64,000 bases of DNA, from positions 875 to 64,874 of the forward strand of contig CAYQCC010000005.1 of assembly GCA_964415895.1 (NCBI GenBank), written 5' to 3'. The stretch's first letter is position 1. The number at the start of each line of letters is the position of its first letter. This document shows, piece by piece, positions 2,472 through 46,154 of the stretch. The translations under genes and the position numbers were made by a program. This DNA comes from an uncultured Candidatus Saccharibacteria bacterium (GTDB lineage: Bacteria > Patescibacteriota > Minisyncoccia > Phycocordibacterales > UBA1006). The notes under the pieces are model-generated. The model worked only from the letters and a program-made list of their open reading frames with translations. It had not been told where the DNA came from and searched no databases.

Positions 2472-2578
2472 TTTAAACGCAAGTAAAAAATACCTTGAAT
2501 TTTATAGGCAATGTGGTGAGATATTAAATAATTATGAAATGCAACAAAAAAACACCGATTGGTGCTTTTTTGAGTGAA

Positions 2579-2977
2579 TTATTTCAATTCTACTTTTCCA
2601 CCTGCCTCTTCGATAGCTTTTTTCAAAGCTTCCGCGTCTTCTTTCTTCATTCCTTCTTTCAAAGTTGCTGGAATTCCATCAACCATGTCTTTTGCTTCTT
2701 TAAGTCCAAGACCCAAAGCTTCTTTAACAACTTTCATAACAGCGATTTTAGCACCACCGTCTGAAGTAAGAACTACTGTGAATTCATCCTTCTCTTCTGC
2801 TGCTGCTCCACCTGCCGCTGGTCCTGCTACAGCAACTGCTGCAGCTGAAACGCCGAATTTTGTTTCGAATAATTTAACAAGTTCGTTCAAATCTAGAACT
2901 GACATGTTTTCAATTGCTTCAACAATTGATTTGAATTTTGCAGGGATTTCCACTGCTGTTGTTTCATTAGTTTCCAT
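2579..2977 (-). CDS. rplL: 50S ribosomal protein L7/L12
   Basis: 132 aa with an Ala/Gly-rich hinge and the conserved C-terminal domain (...[20 protein letters not shown]...GGKVELK). Confidence 0.95.
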
Positions 2978-3004
2978 AATAGATAATCAAAATAAATAAT
3001 AAAT

Positions 3005-3496
3005 TTAAGCTTTTTGCTCTGCAATCTTTGAAAGCGCGATAACCATTCCTTGAATTGGAGAGTTAATAACGTTAACAAACATTCCACGCAATACTTGTGG
3101 TGATGGAATTTCCGCGATTGCCTGCATTTCTGCCGCAGTCATGTATTTTCCTTCAAACACTCCACCGACAACAGTAATGTTATCTGCGAATTTTTTCTTG
3201 AATCCAAAGATTTCACGAGCTGGAGCAATCAAGTCAGAGCCGTAAGCTACTGCAAGAGATCCACCTGCAATTGTAGGCATATCACCTGCAATTGCTGATT
3301 CAGCGAGCGCCTTGGTCAAAAGAGTCTTTTTTGCAACTGCATATCCACCATTACTTTCACGTAGTTGTGATCGCAATTGGTTTGTATCGTTTACGCCAAT
3401 TCCCTGTATATGCAAAAATACCATTGAAGCTGAATCTTTTACGATATCCGTAAATTTCTTCAGAACAGTAACTTTTTGCGCTTTGGTAAGTGCCAT
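3005..3496 (-). CDS. rplJ: 50S ribosomal protein L10
   Basis: Start placed at MALTKAQK... (the six-frame ORF extends further upstream). L10-like throughout; immediately upstream of rplL. Confidence 0.9.
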   Translation of the reverse strand: MALTKAQKVTVLKKFTDIVKDSASMVFLHIQGIGVNDTNQLRSQLRESNGGYAVAKKTLLTKALAESAIAGDMPTIAGGSLAVAYGSDLIAPAREIFGFKKKFADNITVVGGVFEGKYMTAAEMQAIAEIPSPQVLRGMFVNVINSPIQGMVIALSKIAEQKA

Positions 3497-4219: not shown

Positions 4220-4465
4220 ATGATTATGAAACAAGAAGGATCAATTTTTTTTGGGGAGAAAGGGTCAGGAAATAAGGTCATTGAGAATGTGGAGCCAACT
4301 CACGCATACGAGGAAACTCATCTTGGTCAGGATTCGCGCGACTTACCTGAGACTGACATCCTAAGAGCTCGGGATTCTCTGGTAAACAAAAATTGGGAAG
4401 AAGAGCAACTGAGAAAAAGAGAAGCAGATATGAAAAAAGCATTCGAATTTGACGAAGCAGCTTAA
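4220..4465 (+). CDS. Small acidic hypothetical protein
   Basis: 81 aa ORF followed immediately by a strong terminator. Confidence 0.45.
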   Translation: MIMKQEGSIFFGEKGSGNKVIENVEPTHAYEETHLGQDSRDLPETDILRARDSLVNKNWEEEQLRKREADMKKAFEFDEAA

Positions 4466-4469
4466 ACTA

Positions 4470-4495
4470 AAAAACACCTGACGGTGTTTTTTAGT
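4470..4495. terminator. Bidirectional rho-independent terminator (AAAAACACC-tgac-GGTGTTTTTT)
   Basis: Hairpin flanked by an A tract and a T tract. Confidence 0.7.
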
Positions 4496-4512
4496 TTATA
4501 ATTATTTTTTAT

Positions 4513-4878
4513 GTTGTCATACCGGACTAGATCCGGTATCCAGTGCATTATTATATTCCAGATAAGTCTTTCCAGTCTGGGTTATCTTTTTCAATCAATT
4601 CGAGCTTCCATAACCGAGGCCATTTTTTAAGCAATTTCTCTCGAGAAATTGCAGATTCAATATCATGACAATGCTCATAGTATACCAGTTTAGATACGTC
4701 ATATTTCGAAGTAAAACTTTTTTCAAAATGCTTAGCTTTATGTTCTTGGATTCTTTTCTCTAAATTGCTGGTAATACCAATATAAATCGTTCCATTTTTA
4801 TTACTAGCGAGTATGTACACATAATAGATTTTATTTTCCATATATCCTGGATGCCGGATCGAGTCCGGCATGACAGCA
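4513..4878 (-). mobile_element. Compact GIY-YIG element bounded by 28-nt hairpin inverted repeats (TGTCATaCCGGACTAGATCCGGtATCCAG ... CTGGATgCCGGATCGAGTCCGGcATGACA). Copy 1
   Basis: The terminal repeats are reverse complements of each other, and the a/t versus g/c differences are compensatory within the hairpin. The same architecture occurs at 57595-57972. Confidence 0.5.
4551..4841 (-). CDS. GIY-YIG nuclease superfamily protein (COG2827/UPF0213-like, URI-domain endonuclease)
   Basis: YYVYILASNKNGTIYIGITSNLEKRIQEHK... is a GIY-YIG motif. An alternative upstream ATG at 4871 lies inside the right terminal repeat. Confidence 0.8.
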   Translation of the reverse strand: MENKIYYVYILASNKNGTIYIGITSNLEKRIQEHKAKHFEKSFTSKYDVSKLVYYEHCHDIESAISREKLLKKWPRLWKLELIEKDNPDWKDLSGI

Positions 4879-4882
4879 GTGT

Positions 4883-5875
4883 TTATTTTCGTCGGATAAC
4901 ATCGGCAACGGCAACCTTGATAGCATCGCGATCAACTTTATAAAACTTTAACAATTCCTCTGGTGTTCCAGATTGTCCAAACGAATCGCGTACTCCGACA
5001 AATTCCATCGGTACTGGAAATTCTTCCACAATAACTTCGGCAACTGCACTTCCCATTCCACCCATTATTTGATGTTCCTCTACTGTTACTATTGCGCCTG
5101 TTTTCTTTGCAGCGGTAATTATCGCAGATCGGTCAATTGGCTTTATGGTGTGCAAGTTTATAACATCCGCATGAACTCCTTCACTCTCTAAAGATTTTGC
5201 AGCTTGCAATGCTTCATAGACAAGAGATCCGCACGCAATAATTGTTACATCTGCAGATTCTGTTTCGTAAACCATTTGAGCCTTTCCTAATTCAAACGGA
5301 GTTTCTGATGTTGTAAATGTCGGAACACCAGATCGCCCTAATCGCATATAGGCTGGTTTTCCAGATTCTGCAATGGCACGTGTTGCAGCGTTTGCTTGGT
5401 GCATATCAGCTGGAACAATCACAGTCATGTTTGGAAGTGCTCGCATGATTGCAACATCTTCCAATGCCTGATGTGTTGCACCATCGGGACCAACTGTTAA
5501 TCCTGCATGACATCCAATTACTTTTACAGGCATATCATTTATACACACCGTTGTTCGAATTTGTTCCCAATTTCGTCCTGGTGAGAATGTTGCATAACTT
5601 GTGATGAACGGAATCTTTCCAACGTTGGCCATTCCAGAAGCAACTGTTACCAAGTTTTGTTCAGCAACACCAATTTCGATAAATCGTTCTGGGAATTCTT
5701 TTTGAAACCATTCCATGCGCGTAGATTCAGAAAGATCCGCAGTAAGCCCGACAATGTTGGCATTCACTTTTGCAGCATCCACAAGTCCATGACCAAAACC
5801 ATCCCGAGTAGCCTTGCTCTCGAGCTTTGATTGATCAAATAGATCTGGGTTTAGTTTTAAGTTTGAGTTAATCAT
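4883..5875 (-). CDS. Transketolase, C-terminal subunit (pyrimidine-binding plus C-terminal domains)
   Basis: 330 aa with GCHAGLTVGPDGATHQALEDVAIMRALPNMTV... typical of split transketolase subunit B. Confidence 0.9.
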   Translation of the reverse strand: MINSNLKLNPDLFDQSKLESKATRDGFGHGLVDAAKVNANIVGLTADLSESTRMEWFQKEFPERFIEIGVAEQNLVTVASGMANVGKIPFITSYATFSPGRNWEQIRTTVCINDMPVKVIGCHAGLTVGPDGATHQALEDVAIMRALPNMTVIVPADMHQANAATRAIAESGKPAYMRLGRSGVPTFTTSETPFELGKAQMVYETESADVTIIACGSLVYEALQAAKSLESEGVHADVINLHTIKPIDRSAIITAAKKTGAIVTVEEHQIMGGMGSAVAEVIVEEFPVPMEFVGVRDSFGQSGTPEELLKFYKVDRDAIKVAVADVIRRK

Positions 5876-6423
5876 AATTCGTTTGATAACTTTTTGTTAT
5901 TAAGCTCGTTTAGTTTCATAACGTCTTTCGAAGAAAGAATATTGCCATAATCTTCTGGTGCACGCGTAATCTCAATCTTGTTATCTAATTCCTCTTCTTC
6001 ATTCCAGTCCCCCGCTGTGTACACAGCTTTCGGTTGCAGCACGAATTTCCCTTTACTATTTCGCAGAATAATTAACTTATATCCTTTAGGTTTTGCTCCG
6101 AGTTCCTCAGCTTTATTAAGATGAGCGTTTTCGTGCGCCATAGTATGAAGTGTTTTTTCAGGTATCCTATCAAGTTGTTCTAATGCAAATTGAAATTCTG
6201 GAAGAGACTTTAAAAATACTGTCGCATTTTTAATGATTTGCTTTATTTCTTTTTTACGAGTCAAAAGATCTTCTGTTGGTGATTGATCAATTTCTTTTAA
6301 TTCTTCTACAAGATTCTCGTAATCAGATACTTTCAATATATTTTCCTTTCTTTGATTAATGTCTTTGATTATTTTACGCTTTCTTTGCTCGAATGGATTT
6401 TTATTTATTTCCTTAAATTCCAT
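5872..6423 (-). CDS. Hypothetical protein with an HExxH motif (AHENAH); putative small zinc metallopeptidase
   Basis: 183 aa, Lys/Glu-rich, with a single HExxH. Located inside the split-transketolase operon. Confidence 0.4.
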   Translation of the reverse strand: MEFKEINKNPFEQRKRKIIKDINQRKENILKVSDYENLVEELKEIDQSPTEDLLTRKKEIKQIIKNATVFLKSLPEFQFALEQLDRIPEKTLHTMAHENAHLNKAEELGAKPKGYKLIILRNSKGKFVLQPKAVYTAGDWNEEEELDNKIEITRAPEDYGNILSSKDVMKLNELNNKKLSNEL

Positions 6424-6468
6424 ATCATTTATTTTACCATAAACAAAAAAACTTCACTACGAAGCTTT

Positions 6469-6723
6469 TTATAATACAAGTCTCAGTATCGCAACAATTC
6501 CAATCAAAATCCAAATAATGTTCAGCACCATTGGTTGCCAGTCGCGACGCGCTGATGCAACCAGCACCAATCCGAGCGATCCAACAATATTCATCAACTG
6601 AAACCAAATATTGTGAACGGTCAGAATTTCAAAACTCACTAAAAAATATGCCATAACAATCAGCACCATGCCAATCCAGCCGATGGCTTGAAATCGAGGT
6701 TTTGGAAATAAGTAATCAAGCAT
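6469..6723 (-). CDS. Small membrane protein (2 TM helices)
   Basis: 84 aa and hydrophobic. Tightly packed between 6725-7477 and 5872-6423. Confidence 0.45.
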   Translation of the reverse strand: MLDYLFPKPRFQAIGWIGMVLIVMAYFLVSFEILTVHNIWFQLMNIVGSLGLVLVASARRDWQPMVLNIIWILIGIVAILRLVL

Positions 6724-6724
6724 A

Positions 6725-7477
6725 TTATTTTACAGAATAAGTTTCCAGATCGACATTATTACAATCAATAAACTTCTTTGTGTCTAAATTATATTGACCT
6801 TCATATTTTCTAATCTGAGGTAACTTGAAAAAGTTTTCTTGAAACAAATAAATAAATGTTTTCAATGGATTTCCTGGATAGCAAAATAGTATCCACTTCT
6901 CCCGACCTTGAATAAATTCATTTGGTAATTTTATCTGCCCTTTTAATATTAAATAGAGTAGCAATATCTCTTCCAAAAAGAAATTGATTTGGTTTTCGTT
7001 AACTTTTTGTCCAAATGCTTTTGCGTCATCTTTAAGATATTTTTGAAACAACTTATCCTTTTTATAAATATCTTTCAATTGGTTTGAATAATCTATATAA
7101 GTCTTTGAAAGTATGTAGAGCTGACTCCAGGTCATGTATGAAAAAGCATGTTGGATTTGAAATGTCTTTCTATTTTTATGCACTAAATCCTGTAACCAAT
7201 TTGAATGCTGCCAAACCAGGTGTGTGAACTTCTTTTTCAGTGTCAGAGCTTTTTCCGCACTATGTAAATATAGAAAATCACCATAAATGAAGTTTGCTCC
7301 GACTTTTGGAGCAGTCGCTTTATGCTCTGCAAAACGCTTTAGTTCTCCAATTATCGTATCAGGCGCATGTCCGTTTAATAATTTACCCATAGAGAATGGA
7401 AATAATAAAATTCCCTCCTCGCTTGGAAATCTATTAATGTCAAAAAACTCATTTTTTTCTGGCAGCTTAGTTTTCAT
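6725..7477 (-). CDS. Hypothetical protein (250 aa) with a class-I-aaRS-HIGH-like segment (PFSMGKLLNGH)
   Basis: No confident family assignment. The loose HIGH-like segment invites comparison with Rossmann-like class I folds such as cyclodipeptide synthases; this is speculative. Confidence 0.45.
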   Translation of the reverse strand: MKTKLPEKNEFFDINRFPSEEGILLFPFSMGKLLNGHAPDTIIGELKRFAEHKATAPKVGANFIYGDFLYLHSAEKALTLKKKFTHLVWQHSNWLQDLVHKNRKTFQIQHAFSYMTWSQLYILSKTYIDYSNQLKDIYKKDKLFQKYLKDDAKAFGQKVNENQINFFLEEILLLYLILKGQIKLPNEFIQGREKWILFCYPGNPLKTFIYLFQENFFKLPQIRKYEGQYNLDTKKFIDCNNVDLETYSVK

Positions 7478-7483
7478 AAATTT

Positions 7484-8173
7484 CTACAAATTAGTTATAT
7501 CAAAATCTTCATATTCTGCTGGCAACCTTCCCTTTTCCTTTAGATACAAAATTCCTGTTTTTAAAATATCGTTCTTATAATAGTCATCAAATCCGCTTTC
7601 CTTGCTTTCTGCAGTATTCATATTATCAACTGCTTCTTTTAATTTTGCAGCAATTTCGTCGTCAGTCATGATTTCGTACTGCTCTAGTTCTGGATTCTTA
7701 CCCAAGCGCTTGTCAGCGTCGAAATAAAGACCTTTCAGCTCTATGTAATCTTTTCCATTCAGCGAAAACCAACCGGTAGTCCTTAATTTCTCGTTGACGT
7801 TTTTAATCGCCTCTTTTTTCTCTTGTTCTATGTCTGATTTTTTCCTTATAGAGCTTATGTCAAAATCCTCATATTCAGGAGGAAGCTTTTCTTGTTTTTT
7901 AAGAAAAGGAATTCCCTTTTCAAGAATGGTTTTAAATCTGTTCTCAAAACTATCGTCTTTTTTTGAAAGACTAAATCCTTTTACTGCATCGTCCAGTATT
8001 TTCTTGATTTCTTCAACGGTTAATAATTTATAGAGAGGTTCGTCCATTGTATCTTCATATTCTGCTCCAGGACCACCCTGTAAAAGAACATGGTCTTTAC
8101 CGGTAACATCAAATCCACCACTATTCTGGCGCTTTTCTCTTGCTAATTGAATTGATGTCTTTATGCTTTCCAT
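7484..8173 (-). CDS. Hypothetical protein with two ~100-aa internal repeats, each ending LP(P/A)EYEDFDI(S/T)
   Basis: Start placed at MESIKTS, just after the tkt-N stop (the six-frame ORF extends into the tkt gene). The internal repeats are seen directly. Confidence 0.5.
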   Translation of the reverse strand: MESIKTSIQLAREKRQNSGGFDVTGKDHVLLQGGPGAEYEDTMDEPLYKLLTVEEIKKILDDAVKGFSLSKKDDSFENRFKTILEKGIPFLKKQEKLPPEYEDFDISSIRKKSDIEQEKKEAIKNVNEKLRTTGWFSLNGKDYIELKGLYFDADKRLGKNPELEQYEIMTDDEIAAKLKEAVDNMNTAESKESGFDDYYKNDILKTGILYLKEKGRLPAEYEDFDITNL

Positions 8174-8177
8174 ATAA

Positions 8178-9038
8178 TTAATCATTATGGCTTGCCTCGA
8201 TTTTCCCTTGTAAGGTTCGTAGTTCTCCGAGCCATTTCTTTTCTTGTTCCGCATTTGGTGGTGTTCCGTGCCACTTGTAATCAAATTCGATTTCCTTCAC
8301 ACCTTTTCCAGGAATCGTGTGTGCAATAATAACCGTTGGTTTTTCAAATATAGTTTTTGCCATTTCGCATGCGTCAACAATTTCATTAAAGTTGTGTCCG
8401 TTGATTTCGATCACATGCCAATTAAATGCTCTCCATTTATCAGCAAGCGGTTCCAGTGGCATCACGTTTTCTGTCATGCCATCGATCTGAATATTGTTTC
8501 GATCAATGATCGCTGTTAGGTTTGAAAGTTTTTTATTTCCTGCAAACATGATTGCTTCCCATGTATTTCCTTCCTGAAGTTCCCCGTCTGACATGCAGCA
8601 ATACGTATGATTTTTCTTTCCATCCATACGAAGAGCGTATGCCATGCCTGATGCTTGGGACAATCCTGAACCAAGCGGACCTGAAGTGTTTTCCATTCCA
8701 GGCAACATGTGACGTTCTGGGTGACCTTGTAGCCTACTTCCAAATTTACGAAGCGTAAGCAATTCTTTTACGGGAAAATATCCAGCGTGAGCCATGGTTG
8801 CATAGCGCACTGGGACAATGTGACCATTTGATAGAATTAATCGATCGCGCTCTGACATATCTGGATTCTTTGGATCGTGATTCAAGACATGAAAATACAT
8901 GGCAGTAAAAATGTCTGTCATGCCAAGAGGTCCAGCCGTGTGGCCAGATTTTGCTTCTTCGAGCATTTCTAAAATAGACATACGGATATCATTTGCTTTT
9001 AGTTCAAGAGTTTTTACCTGTTCATCGGTGAGTGACAT
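8178..9038 (-). CDS. Transketolase, N-terminal (TPP-binding) subunit
   Basis: 286 aa with HTAGPLGMTDIF... and GHPE...GPLGSGLSQA...DGELQEGNTWEA motifs of transketolase subunit A. Confidence 0.9.
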   Translation of the reverse strand: MSLTDEQVKTLELKANDIRMSILEMLEEAKSGHTAGPLGMTDIFTAMYFHVLNHDPKNPDMSERDRLILSNGHIVPVRYATMAHAGYFPVKELLTLRKFGSRLQGHPERHMLPGMENTSGPLGSGLSQASGMAYALRMDGKKNHTYCCMSDGELQEGNTWEAIMFAGNKKLSNLTAIIDRNNIQIDGMTENVMPLEPLADKWRAFNWHVIEINGHNFNEIVDACEMAKTIFEKPTVIIAHTIPGKGVKEIEFDYKWHGTPPNAEQEKKWLGELRTLQGKIEASHND

Positions 9039-9065
9039 ATACCAAAGATTATATCATAAAATAAA

Positions 9066-9085
9066 GCGGCATGAAGCCGCCTTGT
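9066..9085. terminator. Terminator hairpin (GCGGC-atgaa-GCCGC) serving the minus-strand gene 9100-9621
   Basis: Read on the minus strand, the hairpin is followed by TTTATTTT. Confidence 0.55.
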
Positions 9086-44069: not shown

Positions 44070-46154
44070 TTAAAATTTGACCACTTCTTTTCTTGCATAA
44101 TCATTGTCAGTTTCAATAGTTATAATGTAAATGCCTGCTGGCTTATCCATTATATCTACTTGGTTTGAGAATGATTTGGCCTTGAACACTACCTGCCCTG
44201 AAACATCATAAACGGTTATTTCTCCTTTTTCAATTCCTTGAATGTTTATTAATCCATTATTGGGAACCGGAAAGATCGAAACTTGCTCTGAAATGTTATT
44301 TCGGATGCCTGTCACTATGTTGTTTCGCTTAACGCGTGGCAATGTTACGAATATCGACAATCCATTTGCGTTTCTTAAATTGTACCCGATTTCGTAATCA
44401 CCCGGCGGATGGTTGAACGGAATACTCATGCCATTTGTTATTCCATATCCAACATCTACCGTGTCAAAAAAAGTTTGACCGGTCGTGACATTATAATACG
44501 TGAAGTACAGTACTGTACTTACACAATATGCGTCACCGGAAATTGAAATTGTTGGATTCGCTGATGTTGCAAATCCAACAGGACTTACTTGATAAGAAAC
44601 TGAATCAGTGCTTCCATTATATGTAGGAGCGCTGATAGCAGTAGAGAATGCCATTACGCCGTCTGTTGACCACGTAACGATCCTCCAATAATACCTTCCT
44701 TGCGTTCTTGGCGCAGATTCCGAATACGTGCCCTGATTGGATGTGTCAGTAACGAAAAATGACCTAGTCGTATCGCGCATATTTACGGCATTGCTGTCAT
44801 TAAATGCGCGAATAATTGCAGCGCGACCTGTGCCACTTATCGCATAGCCTGCCAAATCGATGTGACCGCAATAGGTCACCGGCGCAGGGTTGGTCTTGAA
44901 ATAAGCTACCGGCGCTGGTGCCAAAATTCTTCGTAAAGTTCTGATCGCGCCAGAAATCGAGTCAACATGAACCGAATCATTGATAATGATTGCAAATCTA
45001 TACAATGTGCCCTGAGTTCCCGCAAATGCATAGCTGTAGATTCCGTTGGTATTTGCCTGTATCACGGGTGATATTTGCAACTGAGCGCCTGTTGAATCTT
45101 TTTTCACAAATTTAATACTTGCGTGAAAAGTGCCCAATGTAATGGTTGCAAAAATCCTAAACGAATCAATGTAAGCAGTTGCCGACGTGTTTGAAATCAG
45201 GCCGAAATTATACGGTTTTGTCCTGATTGTTCCTCTGAACGTATCAGTTCCAATCGCATTCCAAATGATTACTTGGTACGAGTACGGACTGTTTCCCATT
45301 AAGCCTGTGGCAACATACGGATATAAACCAGATACGTTCGCAGGGATTATAGAAGAAGTTCTCACTACCGTGCCAGACGAATCCTTCACGGTAACCTGTA
45401 AATTACCAGCATACGTTCCTATGCCTACGTCCATCAAAAGTTTGATCGAATCCATGCCTGAAGTTGCCGTAACACCTCTAATGGTGTCTTTGGCAAAGCT
45501 TGGAGTGATAAAGGAATCGCAATTAATCAGCCTGTCGCCTAGTAAATCAGAATGAATCCATATACAATATGTGATTTCATCCTGAGCATTTGGAGTGTTT
45601 AAATGGAGTGTCCCTGTCGTTGTTCCATTGGCGCGGATCGTGTCGTCAGAATAGTCGTCGAATAAGATTCCATAGTTGGCGTGAATATAAAAACTATCAC
45701 GCGTTCCTGTAGCAACGGCGCTAATGATTAATTCGCTTGTTCCGATCTTTGGTATTTCCTGAACCGTCACGGTTGGAAATACCGGATACGCCTTCGTTGT
45801 GAAGGTGTACGGCTGGCAAATCACAGTGTCTCTTGCGGAAGAAGTGTCTGAGATTGTCACCGCATACATGTACGTCGTTGATGACATCAGGTTGCGCGCG
45901 CCAAGAGATCGATTTGATCCTATAGTGCTCGCCATGATACTGTCAGCCGCAATCCATGCGGAATCAATGCCTTTTTTTACCAGAAGCTTTTCTTTGTGAT
46001 TGCCTACAATAGAAGTGGCTGTCACTTTGTAAACTACTCTTGCCGTATCGTAGCCTATATTGCTGGAATTAGGCGGAAGCCACGTTATTGTGGTGTTTGC
46101 GAATGCGCATGCGGATATCATAATCAACATCAGCGCTAAGTACTGTTTTTTCAT
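44070..46154 (-). CDS. Large secreted beta-repeat protein with a C-terminal T9SS-type sorting-domain-like tail
   Basis: Signal peptide; C-terminus ...ITVYDVSGQVVFKAKSFSNQVDIMDKPAGIYIITIETDNDYARKEVVKF resembles the Por/T9SS C-terminal domain consensus. Confidence 0.55.
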   Translation of the reverse strand: MKKQYLALMLIMISACAFANTTITWLPPNSSNIGYDTARVVYKVTATSIVGNHKEKLLVKKGIDSAWIAADSIMASTIGSNRSLGARNLMSSTTYMYAVTISDTSSARDTVICQPYTFTTKAYPVFPTVTVQEIPKIGTSELIISAVATGTRDSFYIHANYGILFDDYSDDTIRANGTTTGTLHLNTPNAQDEITYCIWIHSDLLGDRLINCDSFITPSFAKDTIRGVTATSGMDSIKLLMDVGIGTYAGNLQVTVKDSSGTVVRTSSIIPANVSGLYPYVATGLMGNSPYSYQVIIWNAIGTDTFRGTIRTKPYNFGLISNTSATAYIDSFRIFATITLGTFHASIKFVKKDSTGAQLQISPVIQANTNGIYSYAFAGTQGTLYRFAIIINDSVHVDSISGAIRTLRRILAPAPVAYFKTNPAPVTYCGHIDLAGYAISGTGRAAIIRAFNDSNAVNMRDTTRSFFVTDTSNQGTYSESAPRTQGRYYWRIVTWSTDGVMAFSTAISAPTYNGSTDSVSYQVSPVGFATSANPTISISGDAYCVSTVLYFTYYNVTTGQTFFDTVDVGYGITNGMSIPFNHPPGDYEIGYNLRNANGLSIFVTLPRVKRNNIVTGIRNNISEQVSIFPVPNNGLINIQGIEKGEITVYDVSGQVVFKAKSFSNQVDIMDKPAGIYIITIETDNDYARKEVVKF

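Follow-up and report, generated by a model that had tools for sequence, protein, structure and literature searches.

What are four small genes doing between the two halves of one housekeeping enzyme? The question is raised by a 64,000-nucleotide (nt) stretch of DNA from an uncultured Candidatus Saccharibacteria bacterium (contig CAYQCC010000005.1, positions 875 to 64,874 of the forward strand; here called the window), in which the N-terminal and C-terminal subunits of a split transketolase are encoded by separate genes (tktN and tktC) with four further genes, A to D, between them. A first-pass annotation made from the sequence alone had described four co-directional, tightly packed open reading frames (ORFs) at this site, which gene calls, spacers, and three other assemblies bear out. 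It had also proposed that the four form one cassette, either of the RiPP type (ribosomally synthesized and posttranslationally modified peptide) or for toxin and immunity. We find instead that the junction of the transketolase halves is a hypervariable cargo slot, in which A to D are probably passengers and not one functional cassette. The slot and its borders, from tktN to tktC, are as follows (aa, amino acids).

8178 to 9038, minus strand: tktN, transketolase N-terminal (thiamine diphosphate-binding) subunit, 286 aa; upstream border of the slot
7484 to 8173, minus strand: gene A, acidic two-repeat protein, 229 aa from the ATG at 8173
6725 to 7477, minus strand: gene B, 250 aa, predicted cyclodipeptide synthase (CDPS)-like fold, family unannotated
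6469 to 6723, minus strand: gene C, 84 aa, membrane protein of the CBU_0592 family
5872 to 6423, minus strand: gene D, 183 aa, protein with a HENAH motif, single-gene indel
4883 to 5875, minus strand: tktC, transketolase C-terminal subunit (pyrimidine-binding plus C-terminal domain), 330 aa; downstream border of the slot

Pfam and NCBIfam identify the flanking genes as the halves of a split transketolase. The tktN product matches Transketolase_N (E = 3.7e-60) and is covered by NCBIfam transketolase models over residues 4 to 279, and the tktC product matches Transket_pyr (1.9e-39) and Transketolase_C (3e-32). Genes other than transketolase thus lie inside the tkt operon, in agreement with the earlier description of an accessory insertion into a housekeeping operon.

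The slot was surveyed at 63 metagenomic loci that carry both tkt halves and a tktN 67 to 90% identical to that of the window. The expectation that split transketolase genes are normally contiguous was not borne out, the gap between tktN and tktC being ≤30 nt at only 19 of the 63 loci; it measured 31 to 150 nt at 9, 151 to 500 nt at 19, 501 to 1,100 nt at 11, and >1,100 nt at 5. In relatives that share the flanking genes, the gap spans from 4 nt to 5.5 kb. From 42 loci with a gap of >150 nt (35 of the 63, relatives fetched earlier, and L001, the source organism's own locus), 85 cargo ORFs were collected, and these fell into 48 clusters; about 48 unrelated cargo families therefore occupy the tkt junction across some 40 relatives. 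Cargo types include PAP2, MazG-like, CBS-pair, pilin-like, and NAGPA proteins. The flanks shared by the compared relatives run from an M50 peptidase gene to tktN on one side and from tktC to L10-L12 on the other. Individual slots (identities are to the window copies) contain the following cargo.

L088/L089, tktN 88%, tktC 90%: a 102-aa protein, a 94-aa protein, NAGPA, and a 102-aa membrane protein
L090, tktN 90%, tktC 94%: C, MazG-like, and a D-like gene (31% identical to D); no A and no B
L085, tktN 86%, tktC 92%: a 116-aa gene, B (93% identical), and C
L086, tktN 86%, tktC off the contig end: a 116-aa gene, B (72% identical), and C
L009, tktN 77%, tktC 68%: PAP2, Ser hydrolase, C, MFS fragment, GNAT, D-like, and B
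L010, tktN 71%, tktC 53%: C, a second B-type gene (B'), and B

L088/L089 thus have the same flanks as the window yet four unrelated genes in the slot. Among more distant relatives, the commonest cargo is a membrane protein of 80 to 121 aa with a Cys-rich C terminus (CKCCCGDKHCDTC), found in 11 relatives (e.g., L163, 7916 to 8197) and without a Pfam match.

Variable content, precise indels, conserved borders, and tight packing are all features of this slot. It resembles genomic islets exchanged by flanking homology in that its borders (tktN and tktC) are conserved, its content is unrelated in close relatives, and single genes are inserted or deleted precisely. Unlike such islets, it is bounded by the halves of a single split enzyme in one operon, which therefore places the cargo inside a housekeeping transcription unit, and its borders carry no integrase, tRNA gene, or repeat. 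As a form of genome plasticity the tkt slot is clear-cut, though not without precedent, and the junction of a split housekeeping enzyme offers a compact illustration from nature of the way in which streamlined genomes may gain and express accessory genes.

How might such a slot work? The two tkt halves, conserved in this Paceibacteria-type lineage (Patescibacteria, or candidate phyla radiation [CPR]), would need to be co-expressed, and small accessory genes would repeatedly be gained, lost, and swapped between them, most likely by homologous recombination with the conserved halves serving as flanking homology arms. The passengers would then be transcribed by read-through from the tkt promoter. 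In the window, the spacers from tktN to D measure, in order, 4, 6, 1, and 45 nt, the stop of D and the start of tktC overlap by 4 nt, and the same six genes are present in independent gene calls of three other assemblies of the same organism. Two terminator-like hairpins lie just outside.

9063 to 9083, minus strand: terminator-like hairpin at the end of the gene that lies upstream of tktN
4463 to 4498, strand not assigned: terminator-like hairpin with a 16-bp stem, predicted to close the tkt transcription unit

A hairpin corresponding to the second lies directly 3′ of tktC in L088. Because of the spacers of 1 to 45 nt, the 4-nt overlap, the hairpins just outside, and only weak consensus matches inside, the genes from tktN through A, B, C, and D to tktC look like a single transcription unit, and from this layout we infer read-through transcription of the passengers. 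The GC content at third codon positions (GC3) of A to D falls within the range of the tkt and L10 genes, and this comparison with neighboring genes gave no sign of foreign origin. Some points weigh against this account: the scan, which returned two minus-strand consensus matches inside the operon (both weak), does not cover CPR promoters; we infer recombination through the tkt halves from the pattern alone; and the trio of 116-aa gene, B, and C is kept across B identities of 72% to 93%, suggesting a possible functional link.

The four passengers nevertheless differ in their histories, beginning with gene C, which would be the commonest long-term resident of the slot. The C protein matches NCBIfam NF047864 (E = 7.1e-13; 48.3 bits against a cutoff of 25) from end to end (residues 11 to 81 against profile positions 2 to 72 of 72), and PF26604 is on record for a protein identical to it. 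These matches identify C as a full-length CBU_0592-family membrane protein. It had been described as having two transmembrane segments; its hydropathy profile has three hydrophobic segments. C occurs in the slots of L085, L086, L009, and L010, and without B in those of L090, L093, and L103. In genomes that lack B, CBU_0592-family genes also recur at this site, either inside the slot or immediately after tktC (L093, L103, L094, and L096). The distribution suggests that this small membrane protein has a long-standing positional link to the tkt operon. Its recurrent place inside or beside the split operon is first seen in the present analysis; our literature searches on CBU_0592 returned no paper mentioning the family.

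Gene A has a different history. Its product is acidic (pI 4.9) and consists of two repeats of ~110 aa, whose local alignment scored 152 compared to 32 ± 6 for shuffled sequences, in keeping with the earlier description of two repeats ending in LP(P/A)EYEDFDI.

7847 to 8161, minus strand: repeat 1 of A, residues 5 to 109, ending in KLPPEYEDFDI
7487 to 7816, minus strand: repeat 2 of A, residues 120 to 229, ending in RLPAEYEDFDI

At the exact position of A, two relatives (L085 and L086) carry a gene for a 116-aa protein. Each half of A is 30 to 37% identical to these proteins (E about 1e-9 to 1e-13), and the C-terminal tail KLPxxYxxFD is common to the A repeats and the 116-aa homologues. Because both halves match the 116-aa gene at the same position, A is an internal tandem duplication of a fast-evolving, lineage-specific 116-aa gene. 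In the searches made, A-like genes were confined to three very close genomes, and a collection of 5.8 billion proteins held no homologue of A except A itself. A third layer of cargo would be a fast-evolving acidic 116-aa module, tandemly duplicated in the source genome.

Gene D would represent a further layer, arriving by a separate single-gene insertion. The D DNA (window 5876 to 6429, ~554 bp) has no counterpart in L085, where both flanks align at 82%; by this alignment, D is a precise single-gene indel relative to the closest relative that carries B. Only four homologues of D were found in databases, in addition to the D-like genes of L009 and L090. The HENAH motif at residues 97 to 101 is invariant in 7 of 7 family members, all of which also keep HENAHxN, a Gly, a Tyr, AP(E/Q)xY, and SxxD. 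In L090, the gene immediately upstream of tktC (2488 to 3057) is D-like but shares only 31% identity with D, whereas the adjacent tktC is 94% and C 88% identical to the window copies; either an extreme degree of divergence or the substitution of a remote homologue would account for it. The 243-aa gene adjoining a D homologue in L087 was compared with B and is not B-like.

D had been taken for a putative HExxH metallopeptidase. The motif itself held up, and like the zincin HExxH metallopeptidases (minimal gluzincin/aspzincin-like), D has H-E-x-x-H on a predicted helix and a conserved downstream acidic/Tyr motif, AP(E/Q)xY. The peptidase assignment gained no support: in contrast to zincins, D is predicted to consist of three N-terminal helices, the HExxH helix, and then a β-hairpin, without a β-sheet ahead of the active-site helix. 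The AlphaFold2 (AF2) model is of moderate confidence (predicted local distance difference test [pLDDT] of 73.8), and the best Foldseek matches reached E = 0.32 against the Protein Data Bank (PDB) and 0.056 against BFVD, with template modeling (TM) scores of <0.25, although a fold could be missed at this pLDDT. D had no match, to a peptidase model or to any other family, in Pfam, NCBIfam, PHROGs, PADLOC, or the PDB sequences. "Metallopeptidase" is thus a motif-level guess.

A second precise insertion lies on the other side of tktC.

4551 to 4871, minus strand: stand-alone GIY-YIG nuclease gene between tktC and the terminator hairpin (Pfam GIY-YIG, 2.1e-18)

The segment containing this gene (window 4492 to 4881) has no counterpart in L085 and L088, and both flanks align. 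GIY-YIG or T5orf172 genes were also observed close to the slot in L009 and close to the D homologue in L087.

We turn now to gene B, the passenger for which a biochemical activity can be proposed. The AF2 model of B, built from 40 sequences, has a pLDDT of 88.9 and a predicted TM score (pTM) of 0.87. When it was compared to the PDB with Foldseek, the top 40 matches were all CDPSs, followed by tryptophanyl- and tyrosyl-tRNA synthetases (TrpRS/TyrRS). The top 40 ranged from E = 3.9e-7 (AlbC, the best match) to 1.5e-3, with a probability of 1.00 and TM scores of 0.43 to 0.61; the matched CDPS structures were AlbC, Rv2275, 5OCD, 6EZ3, and ParcuCDPS. CDPSs are related to class-Ic aminoacyl-tRNA synthetases (aaRSs), as the title of PDB entry 2X9Q states. 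The model places B as a putative, very distant and divergent member of the CDPS structural class. An earlier suggestion that B carries a class-I-aaRS HIGH-like segment was therefore right about the class-I aaRS-like fold but not about the motif: the NGHA segment of the window copy corresponds to N-R-Q in the consensus of the family, which also lacks a conserved KMSKS-like motif.

The likeness extends beyond the overall fold. In comparison to CDPSs (Pfam PF16715; reference examples AlbC 3OQV/4Q24, Rv2275 2X9Q, and YvmC 3OQH, and for the XYP type the CDPS of Parcubacteria bacterium RAAC4_OD1_1, 7QB8), B is likewise a stand-alone, basic protein (pI 9.2) of about 250 aa with a predicted Rossmann-type, class-Ic aaRS-like fold, its secondary-structure elements in the same order. 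The B family shares with CDPSs the lack of a conserved HIGH or KMSKS motif and a Ser after the first β-strand in a [G/P]-x-S motif, and its aromatic-x3-Glu pattern on a long C-terminal helix is a candidate counterpart of theirs; as in the XYP subfamily, Tyr-Pro closes the next β-strand. The candidate catalytic residues are S29, F166/E169/E170, and Y200-P201. Across 64 diverse family members, S29 was conserved in 60, F166 in 61, E169 in 62, E170 in 63, Y200 in 63, and P201 in 53. S29 follows strand 22-28 and pairs with AlbC S37 in both hhalign runs, a correspondence of sequence and secondary-structure register rather than of superposed coordinates. Y200 ends strand 195-200, and C199-Y200-P201 pairs with AlbC C201-Y202-H203 in hhalign. 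F166 and E170 have the i, i+4 spacing of the Tyr178/Glu182 pair of CDPSs, and the distance from Ser to Glu is 141 residues, compared to 145 in AlbC and ParcuCDPS.

B also differs from CDPSs. It has Phe at the presumed Tyr178-equivalent position, together with a Glu-Glu pair; a Tyr-to-Phe change at the Y178-equivalent position keeps activity in XYP-type CDPSs (PMC7613923). Near-invariant Y65, Y70, H91, and Y210 have no described CDPS counterpart, and the loop from the Glu helix to the Tyr strand is 10 residues longer. Unlike CDPS genes, B lies amid housekeeping genes and not beside a cyclodipeptide oxidase or P450 gene in a biosynthetic cluster, its recurrent partner is a SET-domain protein, and its family is spread over Patescibacteria and DPANN archaea.

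Sequence comparisons supply the main points against the assignment. The window copy of B gave no match to Pfam CDPS at E ≤ 1, and PDB sequences searched with B as a single sequence and as a profile returned no CDPS and no match at all. When a broad B-family alignment was compared by hhalign to AlbC, Rv2275, YvmC, and BtCDPS (sequences from the PDB), a single full-length, co-linear alignment was obtained (pairwise E = 0.0026 to 0.0038), but with a probability of only 9 to 11%, and it sets AlbC Y178/E182 opposite the nonconserved Y175/K179, so that E182 does not face E170; a narrow B alignment found nothing against four NYH-type CDPSs. Identity to the CDPS structures is 10 to 19%, and the TM scores, about 0.5, are low. 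A Pfam CDPS scan of 66 B-family members gave one match, to the divergent member P0241, which is in register but scores below the 27-bit gathering score (E = 5.4e-4; 20.2 bits). At the sequence level, then, the case for a relationship between B and CDPSs is weak, although the alignment is co-linear.

If the structural assignment is correct, B would most likely use aminoacyl-tRNA by way of a Ser29 acyl-enzyme, taking the aminoacyl group from the tRNA onto this residue. It would next either form a cyclodipeptide by a ping-pong reaction with Glu170 and Tyr200, as in CDPSs, or transfer the group to another acceptor. A tRNA-dependent enzyme of either kind would constitute a second layer of cargo in the slot.

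Outside the slot, B has a wide distribution of its own. The family comprises 411 homologous clusters at 90% identity, almost all of 245 to 255 aa; none of the 411 carries a Pfam domain, and every one named by its source is called hypothetical. An exhaustive profile search yielded 225 clusters at 50% identity, and a genome scan detected the family in 73 species drawn from the Patescibacteria and the DPANN archaea. B itself, like A, had no match in Pfam, NCBIfam, PHROGs, or PADLOC. The context of L006/L024 is truly archaeal (archaeal-type ribosomal protein S15, RIO kinase, and SRP54). Because Nanoarchaeota copies (L024 and L028) are 75 to 77% identical to a Parcubacteria copy (L030), the sequences indicate that B probably moved horizontally across domains, and fairly recently. 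Some genomes hold several copies: L010 (5236 to 6750) carries a tandem pair in its tkt slot, in which one paralogue is of the mainstream type and the other shares 61% identity with the window B; L070 is a single contig with two copies; and one metagenome-assembled genome (DASZOX01; L035, L046, and L055) has three, with 59 to 81% mutual identity. No second copy of B, SET-like gene, or further D-like gene was found in the rest of the window.

Which genes accompany B elsewhere? No universal partner was found at the 60 genome-scan loci where B was called. In one clade the genes run IleRS-(Ser hydrolase)-B-RecO-unk635-GlyRS, which is synteny within that clade and not independent evidence, and another clade keeps fructose-bisphosphate aldolase (FBA)-B-FAD oxidase. 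A tkt gene lay within 8 kb of B at 2 of the 73 species-level loci, and neither C nor an A-like gene accompanied B at any of them (0/73 each). B is therefore independent of A, C, and D outside the relatives that share the slot. Its only partner backed by both fusion and adjacency is a SET-domain methyltransferase. A SET protein of 156 to 167 aa is encoded on the same strand directly downstream of B at four loci (L021, L029, L031, and L045), and in two fusions, P0166 (429 aa) and P0186 (406 aa), the SET domain lies C-terminal to B (Pfam E = 1e-9 and 1e-10). This link hints at aminoacylation of another acceptor rather than a cyclodipeptide product, and the fusions give B a concrete, testable functional connection. 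A further family member, P0140 (525 aa), has a 280-aa N-terminal extension with only a chance-level Pfam match (HTH_24, E = 0.049).

Few biosynthetic or signaling genes can be recognized in the tiny genomes of Patescibacteria and DPANN archaea. If B is indeed CDPS-like, its family would give these organisms a small-molecule or aminoacyl-transfer activity that depends on tRNA and would enlarge the sequence space known for CDPS-type enzymes, a group used as biocatalysts. Our full-text literature searches found no paper on the B family or on a CDPS-like enzyme of CPR or DPANN organisms beyond the canonical ParcuCDPS. We tentatively put forward a joint proposal, a serious possibility that we would not yet favor. 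B would be a third, deeply divergent clade of tRNA-dependent, CDPS-like enzymes, invisible to sequence models, spread horizontally among Patescibacteria and DPANN archaea and repeatedly coupled to SET-domain methyltransferases, making diketopiperazines or aminoacylating non-tRNA acceptors for the interaction of these ultra-small symbionts with their hosts, and the tkt junction would be a dedicated site for the expression and exchange of accessory genes.

Might some of the four genes nevertheless function together? One could suppose that the A-like gene, B, and C form a small functional module, with D a later add-on: B would make a small aminoacyl-derived product, C would export it or protect the cell from it, and the acidic A-like protein would act as scaffold, regulator, or acceptor. 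Consistent with this idea, the order 116-aa gene-B-C is kept in both L085 and L086 with spacers of a few nucleotides, C and B occur together in the slots of L009 and L010, and the KLPxxYxxFD tail is conserved between the A repeats and the 116-aa homologues. Of the four cargo genes, L085 and L086 keep three (the A-like 116-aa gene, B, and C) between or next to the tkt halves, but none with a housekeeping annotation, so that the pattern named earlier as refuting an accessory cassette (all four genes conserved at the site and annotated as housekeeping) is half present. However, B lacks both C and an A-like gene at all 73 species-level loci of the genome scan, the slots of L090, L093, and L103 have C but no B, A-like genes are limited to three very close genomes, and A has diverged to 30 to 37% identity while the neighboring B stays at 93%. 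We consider such a module unlikely.

Our first suspicion about B was of another kind, namely that it is a sugar-phosphate or central-carbon enzyme, a non-orthologous stand-in for a missing step of the pentose-phosphate pathway or glycolysis. B lies directly upstream of tktC in L009 and L010 and directly downstream of a class-II FBA gene in L007, L008, L013, and L065, with one small gene between FBA and B in L011/L012, and PfkB, rpiB, rpe, and transaldolase genes are nearby. This suspicion was dropped after the fold search and the wider survey of gene contexts. The association is limited to one subclade, in which B is at least 55% identical to the window copy; besides the rarity of tkt near B, FBA lies within two genes of B at only 3 of the 60 loci with B called. 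The fold matches CDPSs and class-Ic aaRSs and no sugar-phosphate enzyme, and the recurrent partner elsewhere is the SET-domain methyltransferase. A role in central carbon metabolism is now highly improbable.

CDPSs are tRNA-dependent enzymes that act on aminoacyl-tRNAs; they are not RiPP enzymes or modifiers of ribosomal precursor peptides. The CDPS fold is nonetheless a peptide-bond-forming enzyme fold, and to this extent the earlier hint of peptide chemistry survives in B, although nothing supports a four-gene RiPP unit. Least credible of all, and in our view barely tenable, is the single cassette (A as repeat-bearing precursor, B as modifying enzyme, C for immunity or export, and D as leader peptidase), which the gene layout fits superficially and for which the invariant HExxH of D and the fast evolution of two members (the D-like gene at 31% beside tktC at 94% in L090, and A-like genes at 30 to 37% beside B at 93%) might speak, whereas PADLOC, PHROGs, Pfam, and NCBIfam hold no toxin, immunity, defense, or RiPP family for these genes (A to D matched 0 PADLOC families at E ≤ 0.1 and gave only chance-level PHROGs matches), the four occur together only in the source organism, D is an independent indel with no peptidase fold match, the CDPS-type substrate is wrong for the role assigned to B, and A, at 229 aa, is far above the typical size of a precursor peptide. 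Fast divergence of this degree is typical of conflict genes, and the evolution of A and D is compatible with some conflict or host-interaction role. Passengers with separate histories therefore remain the reading we prefer over any single cassette, because A is a lineage-specific duplication, B is widespread and seldom near tkt, C recurs with or without B, and D is a separate indel.

Two observations fall outside these subjects. In L009 (11562 to 12753), the precomputed Pfam list places a NUDIX domain match between the tRNA-synt_1 segments of an isoleucyl-tRNA synthetase. In the window itself, a 694-aa protein (44070 to 46154, minus strand) has a C-terminal Por_Secre_tail domain (Pfam E = 1.2e-9), a type IX secretion sorting signal that is unexpected for a Patescibacteria-type genome.

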